A stretch of 60,795 nucleotides of DNA, the filler included, from Stramenopiles sp. TOSAG23-2 (lineage: Eukaryota), in assembly GCA_900128395.1 (NCBI GenBank). It is 47 parts of 47 records of this genome, joined end to end, with 100 filler letters (N's around TTAATTAATTAA, not from the genome) between each part and the next. Parts side by side here need not be neighbours in the genome. Positions count along the whole stretch, not along the records: positions 23,416 to 24,542 come from LT653645.1; 46 more parts are not named here. The stretch is one strand, 5' to 3'. Positions within the stretch are counted from its first letter, which is position 1. Each line of letters begins with the position of its first letter. The notes under the pieces are model-generated. The model did no database searches, was not told the DNA's origin, and saw nothing but the letters and a program-made list of their open reading frames with translations. A program made the position numbers and the translations under genes. Shown here in pieces: positions 7,313 through 59,726 of the stretch.

Positions 7313-7412
7313 NNNNNNNNNNNNNNNNNNNNNNNNNNNNNNNNNNNNNNNNNNNNTTAATTAATTAANNNNNNNNNNNNNNNNNNNNNNNNNNNNNNNN
7401 NNNNNNNNNNNN

Positions 7413-8247: not shown

Positions 8248-8645
8248 GTACGAAGCGTTACATGATGCATTATTAAAAAAATTCGTTAATTTGATATTTT
8301 TTTTATACGTTCGTATATACTTTCGTATAATTAAAATATTTTAATATTTTACGAATCGTATAAAATGTTGGTAATGTGTGTGTCTATGTGTGGTGTGTTT
8401 GTGTGTGTAGAACGAGTAAAACATGTATCATACGCTTTTTCTCTACGAAGTAATTTTTACAAAATTTAAAATTAAAATATTACGAAGTCGTACCAAAAAT
8501 GATGCACCTAAAAAAACTTTTTTCTCAATCAGACATTTTTCTATCNNNNNNNNNNNNNNNNNNNNNNNNNNNNNNNNNNNNNNNNNNNNTTAATTAATTA
8601 ANNNNNNNNNNNNNNNNNNNNNNNNNNNNNNNNNNNNNNNNNNNN

Positions 8646-10135: not shown

Positions 10136-10900
10136 ATGACATTACAATATACTCATGATCCTTTACCTATGATATTGCAATTACAACATAATGATGTTAG
10201 TGTTAACAAGAAAGTGACATGGAAGGAATTGCCATTTCGATGTAAAGCAGATGTTTTAAATAAATGGCCATGCGGTAAAATTTTTCAAGGTGATAAAGAT
10301 GCAGCATCATTATTACGTTTACCATTATCAGAATTATATACTGGGAAGGATGAAAACGTAGCACCAACAGCTATAATGCCAACATTTTATTTATATGAAT
10401 ATTCAAATGTAAGTGATTTATTTTATCATGGGAATTGGTGGAAACAAAAACAAACTGTTCAACGGGGCTCATTATTTATAAAACAATTTTTCAAAAATGT
10501 ACATAAAAGCAAAAATATAGACGAAATAAGTCCTGCGCGTGATTGGGCATTGATATTTTTAAGTATTAGCGTCACTATCTCTTGTATAGAAACTTTTCTT
10601 TTAAATGAAGATGATGGTGAGCAATGCATTTGGACAAAAATAGAAGACAAAATTCGTATTAATCTCGCTTTGTCTGCTGCTTTACTATTATCATATGTTC
10701 CAAATTATACATGTTCCGCTTGTTCCGCTATTTTTTGCTTATATTGTGCATATAAATATTGTATGAAAATTTATCATGATATACAATTGCATGGTAGTCT
10801 GAATGTTTATCGTCATACAAGTTTGTTCATACTTCTTATATTAGTCGTCATTAGTATTTATAAAAATATTGATGATTTTGATGCAAGGGATTATGATTGA
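10136..10900 (+). CDS. Membrane protein, C-terminal part (weak resemblance to lysophospholipid acyltransferase C-termini)
   Basis: Long ORF with several hydrophobic segments; YDMTLQY resembles the YDxTxxY motif; 5' end abuts a chimeric junction. Confidence 0.5.
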   Translation: MTLQYTHDPLPMILQLQHNDVSVNKKVTWKELPFRCKADVLNKWPCGKIFQGDKDAASLLRLPLSELYTGKDENVAPTAIMPTFYLYEYSNVSDLFYHGNWWKQKQTVQRGSLFIKQFFKNVHKSKNIDEISPARDWALIFLSISVTISCIETFLLNEDDGEQCIWTKIEDKIRINLALSAALLLSYVPNYTCSACSAIFCLYCAYKYCMKIYHDIQLHGSLNVYRHTSLFILLILVVISIYKNIDDFDARDYD

Positions 10901-11269: not shown

Positions 11270-12244
11270 TTATTGCACTAATGATCCACGTGCAACAACA
11301 GTTGGTTTTTTCATACCATCTTTTGTTTCTTTTTCTTCTGCTGGTGGAGCAGCATCAACTTTTTCTACACTAGCTACATGGTTGATTGGTACACTTTGCT
11401 CCAATACGGTTTCACGATTGTGTTTAGCTGTTGCTGTAACAATAGTTTTTTTACCATCTTTAGAATCACTACTACCATTATCTTCTGCTTCTTTAATATT
11501 TCCACTTAATTTAGCTTTTGCTGATACTACTACTGCATGTTTTGTTGATTCTTCTTCAACATCAACACTACCACCTTTGACTTTTTTTTTAGGCGCTGCT
11601 TCCTCCTCTTCTTTCTTCTCTTTTTTGGCTGGTTTCTCTTCTTCCTTTTCTTCTTTCTTCTCTTTTTTGGCTGGTTTCTCTTCTTCCTTTTCCTCTTTTT
11701 CAGCTGGTTTTGCTGCTGCTGCGGCTTTTAGCTTAGCAATAGTTGCTTTTGCTTTTGCCAATGCACTTTCTGTTTCTGATAATTTATCAGACATAGCGGA
11801 AACTTTACCGTCATCTTTTTTTGCAGGTGCTTCCACTTTTGGTTTCTCTGCTTTGTCTTTAGCATCCGTAACTTCTTTCTTCTTGTCATCTGCCATTTTT
11901 TCAGCCTTATCTTCATCTGCCTCTTTTTTCTTCTCCGATTTAGCTTTTTCTGCTTCTGCGTCGGACTCTTTTTTCTTTTCTTCCATTTCAGCATCTTTTT
12001 TTGCATCTGCTGCTTTCTTTTTCGCAGCTTTTTCTTGATCATCTTTTTTATCACCTTCATCAGCTTTTTCTTTTTCCTCCATTTCTTTTTCTTGGTCTTT
12101 TAAGAATTTTTGTTTATTTTTACAAACATCCAAAATGGCTTTCATTTCTTTTTGAATTTTCATAGCATCTTCAAGTGCATCGTCACTTGCATCTTGTGCA
12201 CGTTGAGATTCTTCTTTCAATTCAGCTGCTTCGTTACGTGCTTC
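11270..12244 (-). CDS. Lys/Glu/Ala-rich low-complexity coiled-coil protein, C-terminal part
   Basis: Open from the contig edge; EEKPAKKEKKEE repeats. Confidence 0.8.
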   Translation of the reverse strand, partial: EARNEAAELKEESQRAQDASDDALEDAMKIQKEMKAILDVCKNKQKFLKDQEKEMEEKEKADEGDKKDDQEKAAKKKAADAKKDAEMEEKKKESDAEAEKAKSEKKKEADEDKAEKMADDKKKEVTDAKDKAEKPKVEAPAKKDDGKVSAMSDKLSETESALAKAKATIAKLKAAAAAKPAEKEEKEEEKPAKKEKKEEKEEEKPAKKEKKEEEEAAPKKKVKGGSVDVEEESTKHAVVVSAKAKLSGNIKEAEDNGSSDSKDGKKTIVTATAKHNRETVLEQSVPINHVASVEKVDAAPPAEEKETKDGMKKPTVVARGSLVQ

Positions 12245-13099
12245 NNNNNNNNNNNNNNNNNNNNNNNNNNNNNNNNNNNNNNNNNNNNTTAATTAATTAA
12301 NNNNNNNNNNNNNNNNNNNNNNNNNNNNNNNNNNNNNNNNNNNNCCTTCTAATGAAGCAAACACCTTTTTGCATTTTTACACCAACAGATGAAAATTCCA
12401 AACCCAATAATGTGGCAAGGGTGTTAAAACCTTCTTCTTTTAACATTTTAATGAAACCTTCAGGTTTCCATTAACATCATAATACATAATTGTTGTTGTA
12501 ATATCTCCTGACCATGTTAGGAACAATAAGTATTACAGTATGACAACCAGTACTAAATTTATGTAACAATTTAACAAGTGAATTTAGAATGAAGTTGTAT
12601 TATGAAGAACAACTCCATCATGATATGACAATTACAGTTGACAATGATGTAGAAGATGATTATATGTATAATTCTGCATATGAAACAAAATACAGTGAGT
12701 TGATTTCGAATTTGGTGTTGCTTTTGCTGTTGCTTTTGCTGTTGGTGATGATGATTTTGAAGTAGCTGTCATCACTTATAGTATATTGACATTGTTTGCA
12801 TTGTTGTCAACGATTGAATTAAATCTTGACATTGTGTTTTACATATATTTTATATATGTATGATGTATGTATATATGATATATAAATGTGATAAATTGTT
12901 GCATAGTAGTAGTTTACACGTTTAAATGACAGTGTTGATGCTTATGACACACAACATGTACTGTCATATTGGTACACATCTCATATTATTTACATGTTCA
13001 TTATCAGGGTATATTCAAATAGCATAGCAAGATAGCATTGAATATATATTCCATGCTGTGTTCGTACTGATCAACCACACCACAGCAGCACACCACCGA

Positions 13100-23416: not shown

Positions 23417-24542
23417 TTTATTAAAACATGTAAGAATATTTACGATCGATGTCAAGAACCAAGTCGTTTATGTGCTGAAATACAAGATTTTTTACATTTT
23501 TTAAAAATCATTGAAACAAATATTGTAAAAGGATTAAAACAATTTCCAACTGAGGAGAGATTAAAATTAATCAATAATAAATTAATTGAAGCGGCCAAAA
23601 CTATAAAAGAATCACAAACTAGGAGTACATTTAGTGCATTTTTTTATGGAAAAGCAGATCGTGAAAAATTTACAGAAATTAAGAAAGATATCATGGATAC
23701 CATGATACTGGTTAATTTTACCATGCAAATTGATGCAAATGTAAATGTTGCAAAATTGATGGCAAAAGATGAGGAATTACATAGTAAATTTGAAAACATT
23801 AATACATCAGAAGATGCATTGGAAACATTATTACAAGGAAAAAATAATGATGTGTTGAAAAAGGAGATATTGCAACATTTGAATTTGAAAGAAAATGATT
23901 TAATATTGGAATTAGATGAATTGAAGAAGCGATTGACGAAAGTGGAGGAGACACAAGAAAAAATAGCAGCAACACAGAATAACGTAGTCAAAACACAAGA
24001 AAAAATATTGAAACAAATCGATATTACCACATCATTAAAAACCATTTTAGACCCTCTCAATTTCAATTTAGAAATTGATGGTGCTGTTGTACGTTTTCAC
24101 AATGGTACAAGAAAATGGGCTTTCGATGATTTTGATAATTGGGTTAAAATTAAATTAAATTCACGTGTATTTCTGTTATCTGGTGGTGCTGGTATGGGTA
24201 AAACTGGTATTATGAGTATGTTAGTACGTACAAGAATGGGAATTGTCATTGCACATCATTTTTGTAGACATGATGATAGCCGTAAACGTGATCCAAAACA
24301 TGTATTATGTTCTATTGCATATCAATTAGCGGAGAAAATACCAGAATATCGTAAGAAATTAGAAGAATTAGGATTAAGTAATGCAAGTTTAAGTGAATTA
24401 AATGTGACGGGACTATTTGATAAAATTTTAAGAGCACCATTAGCAAATATAAAACGACCTGATGAATTTACATCAAAACGCCAAATTATTTTAATTGATG
24501 CATTAGATGAATGTGATCATAATGGTAAAAATGATTTATTAG
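23417..24542 (+). CDS. NLR-like STAND protein: MLKL/HeLo-like helical N-terminus + coiled coil + NACHT (NPHP3/TANC type); partial
   Basis: Frame is open from 23417, 92 codons before the listed ATG. GTRKW, Walker A GGAGMGKT, HHFCR, SIAYQL, Walker B ILIDALDEC. Confidence 0.85.
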
Positions 24543-55632: not shown

Positions 55633-56833
55633 AATAATATATTATTTATAATTTACTTTTTTTTTATATATAATAACTAATAATATGAAATTCTTACTTA
55701 AAAAAATAATAAATGAATATATTATTTGATGAAGAACGAAGGAATAATTAAAAAAAGAAGAAGCTCGAAAAACGCAACGAAACGAAATGAACACTGAAAT
55801 GCGAAAATGAAACAGTATATATATATATATATATCCTATACCTCTCTCTCTCTCTCTATCTTTATCTAATATTAACATTTACACACATAGATAGATTGAT
55901 CTATATCCAACAGGATATATAAAAGCTCAATTACAGGGCTATTATATCCCCATACCAGGTATAGTATATTACGTGTTTATAATATTTGGACCTTTTCTTG
56001 ATTTATTTTCGCTCTTGTTTTAGTATACTAAATATATATTTAAGTATGATGTTATTCCTATCAAATATAGATTCCCAATATTTTAGATAAAAACGAGTTG
56101 GTAATGGTATGTCCTTGTATTTTGTTGTAGGCAATATATTGTGAGGTTGCGAAGCAATCAGGCAAATTGCGAACTACGTAATATACTTAGAAGTATAAGT
56201 ATATATTAATATACTATCAATAATTGTGAATGATCCTGATATTCAATATACAATATGACATAGTACCTTGTAGTATTAAAATAAATATTCCCTGCCCTGA
56301 TGTGTGTGTATAGGGGTATTAACGAAGCAAGATAACAATNNNNNNNNNNNNNNNNNNNNNNNNNNNNNNNNNNNNNNNNNNNNTTAATTAATTAANNNNN
56401 NNNNNNNNNNNNNNNNNNNNNNNNNNNNNNNNNNNNNNNATATATATATATTTTATATATATTTTATTGATTTTTATGTTATTTTAATGAAAAATGTAAA
56501 AAAATGAAAAAAATGCGTGTGCGTGTGCGTGCGTGTGGGGGGGGGGCACCGCCGGTTTTCGTGGATGATCTTTTTTGCAAGTTACTGTAAGCTGTGTGCT
56601 CCTCTTCTGGCCTCGAATATATATATATATATAAAAGAAGATACACAAAAAAAAAACAGAAAAGATACTAGTATAATTATATTTCTTGCACTCTTCACAC
56701 CACACACACAAAAGATAAATAGTCAGTGAGTTGTCATCATCATCTTGTACCTTTTATTAAAACATAAATCAGATATACATAGATATATATATATATTAAG
56801 TACCCGATATATTCACTTATCTACTAATACAAT

Positions 56834-59726
56834 ATGGCAAGTTTAGCAAATAATAATAACAATAAGGAATTATCCTCCTTTATTTTATTACGTCATTCTA
56901 AATTAACGTTAGACACACCATTATTACATATAACATTGCAAGGGGATATGTCTCGAGTTGTTATTGATAGTGTTAAAGCATCGTTAAAAGAATTAGAAGA
57001 AACGAAAACACATTACCAAGATCAATTTTCCAATATGAGGTATGAACTTGGTGCATTCTCGTTCAATTCAGCATGTCCAGCATTTCATCATGGCGAAATT
57101 TTGTTACTTGGGTTTGTACGTCCAATACAAACAATTGGATTTATAATATGTACGGATAAAACTATTTTACAATCGTTTTCATCGTATGGCGATTGTATCG
57201 TATTTCAAGGCCCAGCACAAATACCTTTCTCCCCGCTTGATGATTTGAAGGAAGGAGCAATGTACAACATATCGGATGATGTAGCCCTTGATTTAAGACC
57301 AGGGCAAATGCTTAACATGGGAAAATTAGGTACTGCTAATCATAGTATGATTATCGGAGTTGGCTGGGATGCGACAGTGTCAAAAACTGAAATGATGATG
57401 AAAGGAAAAAATTACAAACCTCCAGATTTGGATCTTGAAATATGTTTATTTGATCATCAACATCGTCCGATACAATTGATGACACCTAAAACTAAACGCC
57501 AAACAACATGTGGCGGAATTGTTGTAACAGCAGATGCTACAGATGGTGAAAGCATTGGTGATGATGAACGTGCACTTGTTAAATTTAAGATTTTAAGCAA
57601 ACAGATACATAGCATAGTAGTTTGCATTCGCGCAGTGGCCAATGCTGGGGAAGCTCCATTTTCACGTGTTCGTAATGTATATGCTCGAATGCTCCATTTA
57701 ACAACTACAAATGAATATGAACTTTTCCGAATTAGGATACTTCAACACCATGCTGGTAATGATACCATGGCTCGTATGTTTCGCATGAAACGAGCTGGAA
57801 ATAGTTGGACAGTACATACATTGTCAGGACCGGAAACGTTTATACCAAAAGCATTAGGTCCTACTAAGAAGATTAATCCAATGATTGATATGAATGCAAA
57901 CGGTAATAATAATCACGGAAAACTACAAATTATGGCTCCTTCATTGCAACCAGCTCTTGAGCAAGTTAAAAAATGTATCACTGGTGCTCCAGGTTTTGAT
58001 TTAGGTACATTGGGTTCGCCTGATCATGCATTGATTGGTATTGGTTGGTTAAATGCTTCAAATGCAAATGATCTAACAATATCTATCACAGAGCTTGATG
58101 AATTTGGATATACAAAAAATATTCACAAACATACGGTCAGGCGTCAAAAAGTGGGTGTTTTTAATGGGAAGAAACTGTTTCATAATGTTACCATAATGGA
58201 TGATTCTATACATTTTGATCGTGACTGTTGTCGCATTTTAGTCGCGGCCGGTTCAAAAAATTTTACCATTGGTATCTCGCCAATTGGTCGAACGCAACAT
58301 GGTGCATATGTAAGATTCATTGAAACTAAGAAAAATCCAGAAACTACAATTGCAATGCGTCATGTACCATATGTAAACCTAGCAAATCGACATCCAAATG
58401 ATGGGGCAATCAAAGCAATTGTGCATTTTGGCGAAGGAAACAAATTGTTCATGGATGATAATTCATTTAATATCCTGAAGATGCCAAAAGATTTTACCCC
58501 AGATGTATTCAAACCTATTCAATTTAATGCTTTTCCTATCTGTTTTGGTGCTGGAAATAATGCCAAAAACGATGCAGGCACATTTAAAACTCGAATATTT
58601 AACATGTGTGGGGAGGAAATGATAGTTTGGGGAGGACACGATAATATATTGTCCAATGTGTCTAAACTTTTCTATGCAAGAGAAACGGATGTGTGGGGAG
58701 GAAATGATAGTTTGGGGAGGACACGATAATATATTGTCCAATGTGTCTAAACTTTTCTATGCAAGAGAAACGGATACAACACAAGCTTCATTGCTTATGA
58801 AGAACACTTTGAATAATGAAGGAAATAGCCTAATGCATATATATTCAATTATGTTGACATTTCAGACGAACAAACCAAGCGCAGGAGCATATTTTCGAAT
58901 ATTAAATCCAAACAAGGCTGGTCAGCCATGTTTGAAAGATGAAGAAGGTAATAATCTTTGTGTCTCCCCTCAAAAGACAATTATTGTGAATTTTACTCGT
59001 TTGCCAGAAAAGCAATTCCTGGCATCCACTGTAAACATATCGCATATAGCGGATGATCAAGCTGTATTTAACCGCATGGGATTAATGAATACTTGTCCAG
59101 CTGCAAATCGAATACAATATCCATTTAAATTTACCCTGGAATATATTCATGCAAGGATTCCAGCAACAGATTCAAAAGGTACATTTTTGAAGAAAAGTTA
59201 TCAAGGTTATACAGATGCATATATGAAAATATATATTTATGATGTTGAAAGCTATTCCTCTTCACACCACCCGCCTCAGCTTAAACCAACAGGAAATATA
59301 GTTTCTTGGATTGAACAGGGTGATAATTATAAGAAAGAGCGTAAGCACTTTCTCAAAAAAGTATTAAAAACAGAGGTGACAAAAAAAATACCGTGTCCAA
59401 ATTGGTACAAATTGGACAATCTGAACATACCATTCAATTTTGATGAAAAAGCAATGATGCGTGAAGAGAAATTGTTATTGCATGAAAAAAACAAACGTGT
59501 CATCGTGCTTGAATGCTGGGATAAGGATTCGATGTCTCTTGATGATTTAATATTTAGACATCGTATTGATATGGCAGAATTGAATTGGAATTTTGAAAAA
59601 GGTTTTGCAGATTGTAATTTTCAACGAGCTACATTTGAAACCCCTGTGGATAAGGGTATAAAATCCAATCACGGCTTTCACCATTCGAATATTAAATGTC
59701 GAATCAAATTGGAAGTTGTTGCCTGA
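56834..59726 (+). CDS. TerD + degenerate TerD + C-terminal C2-domain protein (~935 aa once an 85-bp duplication is removed)
   Basis: IGVGWD..DLDL..LFD..DATDGESIGDDE..FSRVRNVYAR; second unit LIGIGW..DL; C2 motifs TDAYMKI, KTEV.KK..CPNW, LECWDKDSMSLDDLI. The duplication at 58604-58775 links the two listed ORFs. Confidence 0.8.

Follow-up and report, generated by a model that had tools for sequence, protein, structure and literature searches.

The contig and its open reading frame

The window analysed here is a 60,795-nt stretch of assembly GCA_900128395.1, made up of 49 segments of A, C, G and T, mostly about 1.1 kb in length, with N/TTAATTAATTAA spacers between them; inner runs of N in two contigs make this number fit 47. 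Because the window consists of short segments joined through spacers, its genes are without physical linkage, as an earlier reading of this DNA made from the sequence alone (the sequence-only reading) had said. The element of interest is the contig at 23416-24542 (LT653645.1; the window contig), whose product (the window protein, P0001) carries a helical bundle resembling the executioner domain of MLKL, followed by a coiled coil and a NACHT-type nucleoside triphosphatase (NTPase). Judged by its sequence and by that of near-identical metagenome contigs, the window contig comes from the interior of a nuclear gene that has no introns and belongs to an AT-rich marine microbial eukaryote, and encodes part of a receptor of the STAND (signal transduction ATPases with numerous domains) or NLR (NOD-like receptor, after its nucleotide-binding and oligomerization domain, NOD) type.

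A single frame of the contig is free of stops over all of its 375 codons, against 7-50 stops in each of the other five, and the probability of 375 stop-free codons at the composition of the contig (71% A+T) is about 6e-17; the open frame with its helical region and NTPase is thereby confirmed as real. Its 375-residue product starts FIKTCKNIYDRCQEPSRLCAEIQDFLHFLKIIE, exactly as quoted in the sequence-only reading, which had also placed 92 codons upstream of the listed start, the first listed ATG-started open reading frame beginning at 23693. Measured on the whole gene of a near-identical metagenome contig (L001, below), the fragment covers approximately residues 207-581 in a protein about 1,640 residues long. 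The features of the contig are the following, with residues numbered along the window protein and the basis of each assignment in brackets.

23417..24541, + strand: 375-codon fragment of an open reading frame, closed at neither end (translation; segment 23416-24542)
23417..23710, + strand: MLKL_N-like four-helix bundle, residues 1-98 (AlphaFold/DSSP helices, profile and fold matches)
23630..23665, + strand: conserved motif FSAFFYGKADRE, a short helix and the start of the fourth bundle helix (alignments A1 and A2; HMMER alignment to 4btf_A and 6lk5_A)
23747..23878, + strand: brace-like helices after the bundle, residues 111-154 (AlphaFold helices 111-125, 131-139 and 142-154)
23891..24031, + strand: heptad coiled coil, one long helix, residues 159-205 (heptad scan; AlphaFold helix 159-190)
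23951..24007, + strand: 21-nt tandem repeat, 2.7 copies, encoding heptads (TQEKIxK) (Tandem Repeats Finder)
24104..24523, + strand: NACHT-type P-loop NTPase, Pfam NPHP3_N, residues 230-369, cut by the contig end (E 7.4e-25)
24182..24205, + strand: Walker A motif GGAGMGKT (translation; invariant in alignment A1)
24485..24517, + strand: Walker B motif IILIDALDECD (translation; invariant in alignment A1)

A helical bundle of the MLKL class

Residues 11-117 of the window protein align with positions 24-126 of the 142 in the Pfam MLKL_N profile (PF22215) at E 2.3e-3 and 17.9 bits, a score below the cut-off of 27 bits. The same family is listed for six of the 16 domain-bearing proteins scanned (P0024 not counted), in five of the six below the cut-off: E 2.3e-3 for P0001, 7.1e-5 for P0002, 3.7e-5 for P0020, 2.5e-4 for P0016 and 0.11 for P0017. 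The sixth, P0026, lies above it (35.9 bits against 27, E 6.3e-9) and has a weak RPW8 match as well (E 5.8e-3). Its NOD is 46% identical to that of the family member P0003, and hhalign matches the family N-domain profile (A2) to it with a probability of 96.8% and E 2.6e-10 over 93 columns.

Profile A2 was also compared with 177,635 distinct PDB sequences, and the top seven of its 22 matches are all MLKL. The best is mouse 4btf_A (E 1.9e-6), with positions 35-191 of the profile on residues 12-191; it is followed by 6lk5_A (E 8.6e-4) and by the MLKL N-domains 6d74, 2msv, 6zle, 6ux8 and 6zvo at 4-6e-3. After the MLKL chains come PDE9A at E 0.024 and coiled-coil proteins at E above 0.1. A profile of the whole protein (A4) gives the same answer, as all six of its PDB matches at E<=0.1 are MLKL, the best at 9.3e-4. 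Searched as single sequences against the PDB, P0001 retrieves only the streptococcal M protein, a coiled coil, at E 1, and P0026 one Hsc70 chain at E 0.22. In ESM features, the clusters nearest to residues 1-135 are basidiomycete (0.95), one of them with MLKL_N on 26% of its members, and plant MLKL_N/RPW8 clusters stand at 0.88.

Few relatives stand behind these profiles: four longer homologues came from a word-indexed search among 5.8 billion proteins and three more from a profile search, and HMMER with residues 1-225 against 1.84 billion representatives returned 11 proteins at E<=1e-3, mostly fragments, so that the alignments are shallow. The motif FSAFFYGKADRE is common to the family and aligns with the W/F-x-x-F...D-K stretch of MLKL. 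Taken together, the profile matches support homology between the region of residues 1-98 and the executioner domain of MLKL, within the MLKL/HeLo/RPW8 class.

Fold of the bundle and its predicted self-association

The best AlphaFold model of window residues 1-191, built from 18 sequences, has a predicted local distance difference test score (pLDDT) of 76.8 and a predicted template modelling score (pTM) of 0.64. It consists of helix h1 (residues 2-12, cut by the contig end), h2 (20-42), h3 (46-67), a short cross helix (71-76) and h4 (78-98), followed by the brace-like helices and the long heptad helix. A Foldseek search with this model places the MLKL N-domain 2msv first (probability 0.85, TM 0.50), with other MLKL chains and the CC-R domain of NRG1.1 lower down, yet none of its matches reaches E<=0.001.

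In a VIA-align search of 48,161 representative chains, the plant MLKL3 (AtMLKL3) 6ka4_A ranks first (Z 9.7, root-mean-square deviation (rmsd) 4.2, 127 residues aligned), the NRG1.1 CC-R sixth (Z 9.3), Rx-CC seventh (Z 9.2), human MLKL ninth (Z 9.0), mouse MLKL 16th (Z 8.4) and MLA13 33rd (Z 7.5), on a scale where values under about 13 are common for helical-bundle folds. A second VIA comparison, made with MLKL, AtMLKL3 and the NRG1.1 CC-R, gives overall Z values of 8.3-10.3: the NRG1.1 CC-R superposes with Z 10.3 over 96 of its 109 chain residues (rmsd 3.1) and human MLKL 6zvo_C with Z 9.2 over 115 of 140 (rmsd 3.2). The alignments span residues 1-154 of the model for 2msv and 1-139 for AtMLKL3. 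In terms of fold, then, the model shows a compact four-helix bundle and no extended coil; this is a statement of fold and not of kinship, and the predicted kinship with MLKL rests on the sequence profiles because unrelated bundles score alike in the fold search. What the sequence-only reading had called an MLKL/HeLo/RPW8-like four-helix domain thus holds in both respects, the profiles singling out MLKL and the region modelling as a bundle instead of a plain coiled coil.

Folded together, four copies of residues 1-191 scored 0.70 and the best of three controls 0.00, and the runs agreed on at least 41% of contacts with a partner pLDDT of at least 57. The mark so reached is attained by 21 of 30 proteins whose solved form is a pair of one chain and by 0 of 23 whose solved form is a single chain (in eukaryotes, 17 of 29 and 0 of 30), in a calibration set that, unlike this job, did not use four copies. 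Confident contacts between copies fall on h2 and on h4 with the stretch that follows, and none in the heptad helix. The bundle region may accordingly be one that self-associates, as far as such a model can tell; as MLKL tetramers have been solved, the pass may reflect memory or likeness rather than binding.

Coiled coil and NTPase

Heptad periodicity is strongest over residues 149-205, and the 21-nt repeat inside this segment recurs in L001 at 8463-8519, again with 2.7 copies. Relative to the window protein, the coiled coil is 7 residues shorter in P0002 (the protein encoded on L003) and in P0003, and 14 residues shorter in L002, P0004 and P0005. These changes of length by whole heptads fit a coiled coil, which the sequence-only reading had placed at this point.

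NPHP3_N matches the window protein with 88.5 bits against a cut-off of 24.8. The Pfam family NACHT itself (PF05729, cut-off 26.7) gives 16.8 bits for the window fragment, 25.9 for P0002, 29.9 for P0026 and 39.2 for P0025, and the fragment stays below the cut-off because the contig stops just past Walker B. P-loop NTPases of this kind are recognised by a Walker A pattern GxxxxGK[ST] and a Walker B pattern hhhhDxxDE, and the fragment has both, so that the "clear NACHT" of the sequence-only reading stands. No Pfam match to a kinase domain was found in the window protein or in the scanned homologues; it is the NACHT that follows the bundle.

The whole gene in near-identical metagenome contigs

A scan of metagenome contigs gave four loci.

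L001: 96.4% nucleotide identity to the window contig, 1,126 nt aligned to L001 7932-9054; carries the whole gene
L002: 91.4% nucleotide identity to the window contig; gene reaches the contig end
L003: 87.2% nucleotide identity to the window contig; contig encoding P0002
L004: 53% protein identity to the window contig

The gene on L001 has no introns; it begins with an ATG at 7314, preceded two codons earlier by a stop, and ends at 12245 (about 1,640 codons). Its protein opens with MGGGASKNK. A conserved domain of about 90 residues, an acidic linker rich in threonine and an extra helix (LAILNNVLDGIEVVAEII) come before the bundle; the brace, the coiled coil, NPHP3_N (435-601), a helical region, a glycine-rich loop, WD40 repeats, a spacer and ankyrin (ANK) repeats follow in this order. 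The C-terminal repeats comprise six WD40 units of 42 residues and approximately seven ankyrin units of 35, and the 25 best Pfam matches listed for L001 7314-10574, as for P0133, are filled by WD40 families. The region after the NTPase, with weak HTH_TANC1 and APAF1_C matches in homologues, has winged-helix and helical parts. P0024 (1,596 residues) repeats the domain order of L001 with more WD40 units. The NLR assignment of the sequence-only reading is borne out by this full gene with its NACHT, WD40 and ANK parts, and the C-terminal repeats that it had suggested looking for are present, as read from L001, in the form of WD40 and ANK.

The position that it had given to the bundle has to be corrected. 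About 200 residues precede the bundle in L001, L002, P0002, P0003, P0020, P0021, P0022 and P0024, and a bundle at or near the N-terminus is found in the distant relatives P0017 and P0026. Seven of nine distinct protein starts (P0002, P0003, P0020, P0021, P0022, P0024 and P0011) read MGxxx[ST], as do those of L001 and L002; the other two, the pairs P0004/P0007 and P0005/P0010, read M[PR][WF]WKRKKK. An MGxxx[ST] start with a polybasic patch is what we take to be a predicted N-myristoylation-type motif. The domain of about 90 residues (L001 7314-7600) had no Pfam match, and its profile (A5) none in the PDB at E<=10; in ESM features it peaks at 0.79, with a Rad60-SLD cluster at 0.77, values below the useful level.

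Variable WD40 and ankyrin repeats

At the nucleotide level, the WD40 array is a 126-nt tandem repeat whose units match at 91% with no insertions or deletions, and the ANK array a 105-nt tandem repeat matching at 84%. From L001 and L002, ten WD40 units were collected, and eight were kept after the divergent first unit of each gene had been dropped. Among these, 27 of the 42 codons are identical in nucleotide sequence, and the pairwise codon differences amount to 196 non-synonymous against 12 synonymous, all 12 in one codon; these are counts over eight units from two contigs and not a formal test of the ratio of non-synonymous to synonymous rates (dN/dS). Six different residues occur at each of positions 9, 12 and 28, four at 30, and three each at 10 and 15. 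In five central ANK units, 98 differences are non-synonymous and 26 synonymous.

In het-d and het-e of Podospora, codons 7, 9, 25 and 27, which flank the conserved positions 8 and 26, are positively selected, and the propeller carries the corresponding positions on its top face (PMC1805685, as excerpted). With an offset of 3, the variable sites here align with those sites, 10/12 around V11 and 28/30 around D29. Hypervariable positions in near-identical WD40 units are thus a pattern that fits recognition genes of the het-d/het-e type, as far as their sequence goes.

L003 has no WD40 array: its frame stops a little way beyond the helical domain, and an ankyrin-like repeat goes on in a different frame at 11860-12176. 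Either this variant is truncated or its assembly has collapsed. At 12470-12629, up to the end of that locus, lies a short tandem repeat with units like CTGGAATGC / CAGAATGC.

The NTPase clade and distant relatives

With the NOD of P0003 as query, 117 proteins were found at E<=1e-5. The nearest (37-89% identity) are marine or eukaryotic, and those with an assignable N-terminus have the four-helix bundle; other N-termini in the clade are a weak TIR_2 (P0033) and a PX domain (P0032). Next, at 26-33%, come HEPN_DZIP3-NPHP3_N-WD40 proteins and bacterial TIR_2-NPHP3_N proteins (named bacterial TIR matches, 26-32%), then a protein from a green alga (29%) and NACHT-WD40 proteins of fungi (22-29%), some of them named HET-E-1. 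On these domain assignments, effector domains (four-helix bundle, TIR_2, HEPN_DZIP3, PX) appear to have been swapped on one NOD type among the relatives. NB-ARC appears in the clade in P0025 only, below the cut-off (E 9.9e-4, 18.9 bits), and is not listed for the window protein or the homologues with a bundle; the HET domain had no match in any Pfam scan of family members.

Several relatives depart from the common order. P0025 (1,091 residues) has two NPHP3_N-type modules, each after a region without a Pfam match. P0026 (760 residues) has the bundle directly before the NACHT, without the domain of about 90 residues, and P0017 (1,571 residues) a bundle and ankyrin repeats with no NACHT match. 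In P0009 (266 residues), a Phage_integrase (tyrosine recombinase) match at 19-111 is joined to the family N-domain and bundle, and this protein may be a mobile element beside a paralogue or a chimeric gene model.

Host and genomic setting

The open reading frames flanking the gene encode a PROPPIN, a SASA esterase and a collagen/ephrin-receptor-like protein in L001, EF-hand and RCC1 proteins in L002, and SNF2, Rce1-like and Pga1 proteins in L003. No match of at least 300 nt is shared between the flanks of the three loci in blastn, and tblastx finds only pieces of 7-48 residues. Among these unrelated neighbours, the gene copies are 86-90% identical in nucleotides to one another and 87-96% to the window contig, and they are either paralogues of a multi-copy gene or orthologues that have moved.

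Of 24 public runs listed, from 15 studies, 20 contain the stretch searched or part of it, including six RNA libraries; most of these runs are labelled marine metagenome and hold 0.43-0.56 of the sampled words. Four runs were aligned to this stretch, three of them metatranscriptomes with contigs on it, and in two large parts of it are uncovered. Among the metatranscriptome contigs, one of 1,235 nt spans 23417-24279, with 29 differences and a single gap of 3 nt, and continues for 375 nt further upstream, and a poly-A library has four short pieces on the stretch. The relative P0025, whose NOD is 55% identical over half of the query, is labelled Stramenopile-MAST_4 in EukProt. A marine microbial eukaryote as the source is therefore well founded, from the eukaryotic neighbours and the marine runs together with this relative, and a stramenopile is only hinted at; the protist of the sequence-only reading would have the same three observations as its basis. 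A search of 2.9 million viral contigs with protein and alignment A1 queries found no relative.

Other contigs of the window

In tblastn with five family proteins, the family is confined within the window to the contig at 23416-24542, and Rfam gave no match on the whole window. Three further fragments had been listed by the sequence-only reading. The neighbouring, unlinked contig at 22190-23314 does encode an XK-related membrane protein (E 3.6e-10), and the leucine-rich repeats (LRR) at its end are weak (LRR_6, E 1.2e-3). The contig at 36891-38012 encodes strong TPR_10/TPR_12/TPR_NPHP3 repeats, as had been said of its TPR part, and neither HET nor TIR is among the 25 best of its 34 Pfam families. 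The CHAT match at 3-1136 lies below the cut-off (20.4 bits against 24). A 633-residue open frame with a TerD domain (E 4.9e-11) occupies 56828-58726, the sole long segment of the window, and further contigs encode RhoGAP-RGS, kelch, TIG and kinase proteins.

A candidate mechanism and its alternatives

Membrane attack by clustered bundles is the mode of action of fungal HeLo/HELL proteins, MLKL and plant resistosomes (PMC9815663 and PMC12881547, as excerpted). On this model, the gene would probably encode a membrane-tethered receptor whose NTPase drives the clustering of bundles that attack the membrane. The myristoyl and polybasic start would hold the resting receptor at the membrane, and a few hypervariable residues on each WD40 blade, perhaps on the ANK units too, would form a ligand surface diversified by exchange between repeats; by analogy with the HET-E model in the excerpted text of PMC1805685, these residues would lie on the top face of the propeller. 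Binding of a ligand would cause the NTPase to oligomerise, and the oligomer would cluster the four-helix bundles so that the membrane is engaged and permeabilised, with cell death or an ion flux as the outcome, in an abortive-infection or a non-self response, in the manner of the HeLo-like and MLKL-like NLRs of fungi and the CC/CC-R resistosomes of plants. A function in death or immunity is suggested by analogy, and the "suicide receptor" of the sequence-only reading would likewise take its name from what the relatives do. A more far-reaching version, which we put forward tentatively, is that uncultured marine heterotrophic protists possess a self-diversifying NLR repertoire of the fungal style, whose myristoyl-anchored, MLKL-type bundle would be masked by the N-terminal domain and would serve as a switch for abortive infection, with giant viruses as one example of what it could act against.

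A number of observations weigh against a membrane-attacking receptor, foremost among them the internal position of the bundle, with about 200 residues ahead of it. In MLKL, HeLo and plant CC proteins, the bundle lies at a free N-terminus, and expulsion of a helix at that end into the membrane has been proposed (PMC9815663, as excerpted). To act from an internal position, the extra helix and the bundle might work differently, or the N-terminal part might mask them or be removed. The sensor repeats and the N-terminus lie outside the window contig and are read from metagenome contigs of 96.4% and 91.4% identity, and myristoylation is predicted from a motif. In sequence, the window protein (17.9 bits) and its close homologues (22.8 and 23.7 bits) are under the MLKL_N cut-off of 27 bits. 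In structure, one of five AlphaFold models exceeds a pLDDT of 70 (76.8, 67.0, 62.9, 59.5 and 57.3), Foldseek has 0 matches at E<=0.001 (E-values about 1), and unrelated and designed helical bundles tie with the plant and animal chains at VIA Z 9.0-9.6. A first AlphaFold model, of a 260-residue segment of P0002 with nine sequences, was poor (pLDDT 55), and its Foldseek matches, at TM values of about 0.2, were discarded. The repeat analysis covers eight units from two contigs, in which assembly of near-identical repeats can err, and the third WD40 unit of L001 contains an in-frame TAA at 10575-10577, where the other seven units have a lysine; this TAA may come from an error of sequencing or assembly, represent an allele or mark a pseudogene. 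To this are added the missing WD40 array and early stop of L003, and the fact that contigs from RNA libraries are evidence of presence and no proof of transcription.

The internal position of the bundle would also fit a non-lethal STAND scaffold or signalling ATPase like NPHP3, TANC or NWD1, in which the bundle would serve as an interaction or oligomerisation module at the membrane. The NTPase belongs to Pfam NPHP3_N, HTH_TANC1 and APAF1_C match weakly behind it, the N-terminal MG motif is present (NPHP3 is itself myristoylated), and helical bundles of this size are common, with unrelated ones equalling MLKL in the fold search. We nevertheless regard such a scaffold as unlikely: the sequence profiles single out MLKL, in seven of the top seven matches and in six of six, the hypervariable and concertedly evolving WD40 units carry the signature of a recognition gene and not of a housekeeping scaffold, and TIR and HEPN effector domains occur on the same NOD clade.

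The same WD40 units bear on the question of what would be recognised. Their hypervariable positions coincide with those of het-d/het-e, and copies at 87-96% nucleotide identity sit in unrelated surroundings, both of which would suit allorecognition in place of a role against pathogens. We know of no somatic fusion in small marine flagellates, however, and no partner locus was seen, which makes allorecognition improbable here; in fungi, moreover, the two uses are not mutually exclusive.

That the region is a plain coiled coil, with its likeness to MLKL an artefact of composition, is disfavoured and very improbable: it is helical and rich in lysine and glutamate, and the single-sequence PDB search (M protein only, E 1) and Foldseek (E about 1) could be read in this way, but the model is compact and superposes on human MLKL (115 of 140 residues, rmsd 3.2) and the NRG1.1 CC-R (96 of 109, rmsd 3.1), profile A2 gives E above 0.1 for coiled-coil proteins against 1.9e-6 to 6e-3 for MLKL, and the relative P0026 exceeds the curated MLKL_N cut-off. 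Just as hard to sustain is an origin foreign to a protist, in a giant virus or a fungal or bacterial contaminant, for which the AT-rich, intron-less DNA on short contigs and the bacterial and fungal nearest named NOD relatives outside the clade might speak, and against which stand the 2.9 million viral contigs without a relative, the eukaryotic flanking genes on three contigs (PROPPIN, RCC1, SNF2, Pga1, Rce1-like) and NOD identities of only 22-29% to fungal and 26-32% to named bacterial TIR matches.

Comparison with known systems

Fungi and plants are the main groups in which MLKL-type bundles coupled to NLR switches are known, and animals have MLKL itself; to these is now added a protist gene with three testable features, namely the combination of bundle, switch and het-e-like WD40 units, the lipid-anchor motif and the internal position of the bundle. 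It offers a way to ask whether receptor-triggered, regulated lysis exists in abundant marine flagellates, and it bears on the origin of the pairing of four-helix bundles with NLRs. If the more far-reaching version given above is true, the combination of a four-helix-bundle killer with a NACHT and concertedly evolving WD40 repeats would be far older than fungi or would have moved between kingdoms, and the protist form would be a variant whose bundle either can do without a free N-terminus or is released by cleavage. In 2020, a survey of 67 protists with human queries reported no homologues of MLKL or of necroptosis regulators, and the pathway was taken as vertebrate-specific (PMC7539657, as excerpted). 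Our literature search, mostly of open-access papers, found no such gene described in the titles and abstracts listed outside fungi, plants and animals, and a mention in a domain census is possible.

Among the known systems, the fungal NLRs of the HeLo-like, the Goodbye-like or the BaMLKL type share the order of four-helix bundle, NPHP3_N-type NACHT and WD40 (PMC4986451 and PMC9815663, as excerpted). In fungal NLRs, effectors are swapped on one NOD type, and HeLo-like domains are almost always found with NACHT and often with WD40 (PMC4986451, in the same excerpts); a comparable swapping on related NODs is suggested here. In BaMLKL N-termini, an extra helix precedes the bundle and a short one lies between h3 and h4 (PMC9815663, as excerpted); both recur here, the former in the homologues, and the nearest ESM clusters are basidiomycete. 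Unlike the fungal NLRs, to whose NODs identity is 22-29%, the protist protein has approximately 170 further residues (MG motif, domain of about 90 residues, acidic linker) ahead, a heptad coiled coil between bundle and NACHT, and WD40 and ANK together in one protein.

HET-E and HET-D (HNWD) of Podospora anserina likewise combine a NACHT with highly conserved WD40 units of 42 residues, in which the variation falls on two pairs of codons, 7/9 and 25/27 there and 9/10/12 and 28/30 here, with a large non-synonymous excess (PMC1805685, as excerpted). They differ from it in having a HET domain in place of the four-helix bundle, and the comparison sets 69 units in the same source against eight here.

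With animal and plant MLKL (PDB 4btf, 2msv, 6zvo and 6ka4), the protist protein has in common a homologous four-helix bundle with brace-like helices behind it, and self-association is predicted by its model. By comparison with MLKL, the protist protein has a NACHT NTPase as its switch, a bundle that is not N-terminal and no pseudokinase domain, and there would thus be no phospho-switch of the RIPK3 type. With the plant CC-R/CC NLRs, the likeness lies in the fold of the bundle (NRG1.1 CC-R, Z 9.3-10.3; Rx-CC, 9.2; MLA13, 7.5) and, under the mechanism proposed here, in an NTPase-driven oligomer that would present the bundles in the manner of a resistosome. Unlike the plant CNL and RNL receptors, it has NACHT instead of NB-ARC and WD40/ANK instead of LRR, and RPW8 is matched weakly in one relative (E 5.8e-3).

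The bacterial TIR_2-NPHP3_N and the HEPN_DZIP3-NPHP3_N-WD40 proteins have the nearest NODs outside the marine clade (26-33%) and carry other effectors, with no four-helix bundle. The candidate receptors of brown algae are, like the protein described here, STAND receptors with fast-varying repeats, in a stramenopile (PMC3341825, as excerpted). Unlike it, they pair NB-ARC with TPR and vary by exon shuffling, and the excerpted description in PMC3341825 contains no four-helix bundle. A four-helix-bundle effector with NACHT and WD40 is already well known in fungi; what is new in this gene is the host group, the heptad spacer, the presence of WD40 and ANK in one protein, and hypervariable positions of the het-e kind outside fungi.

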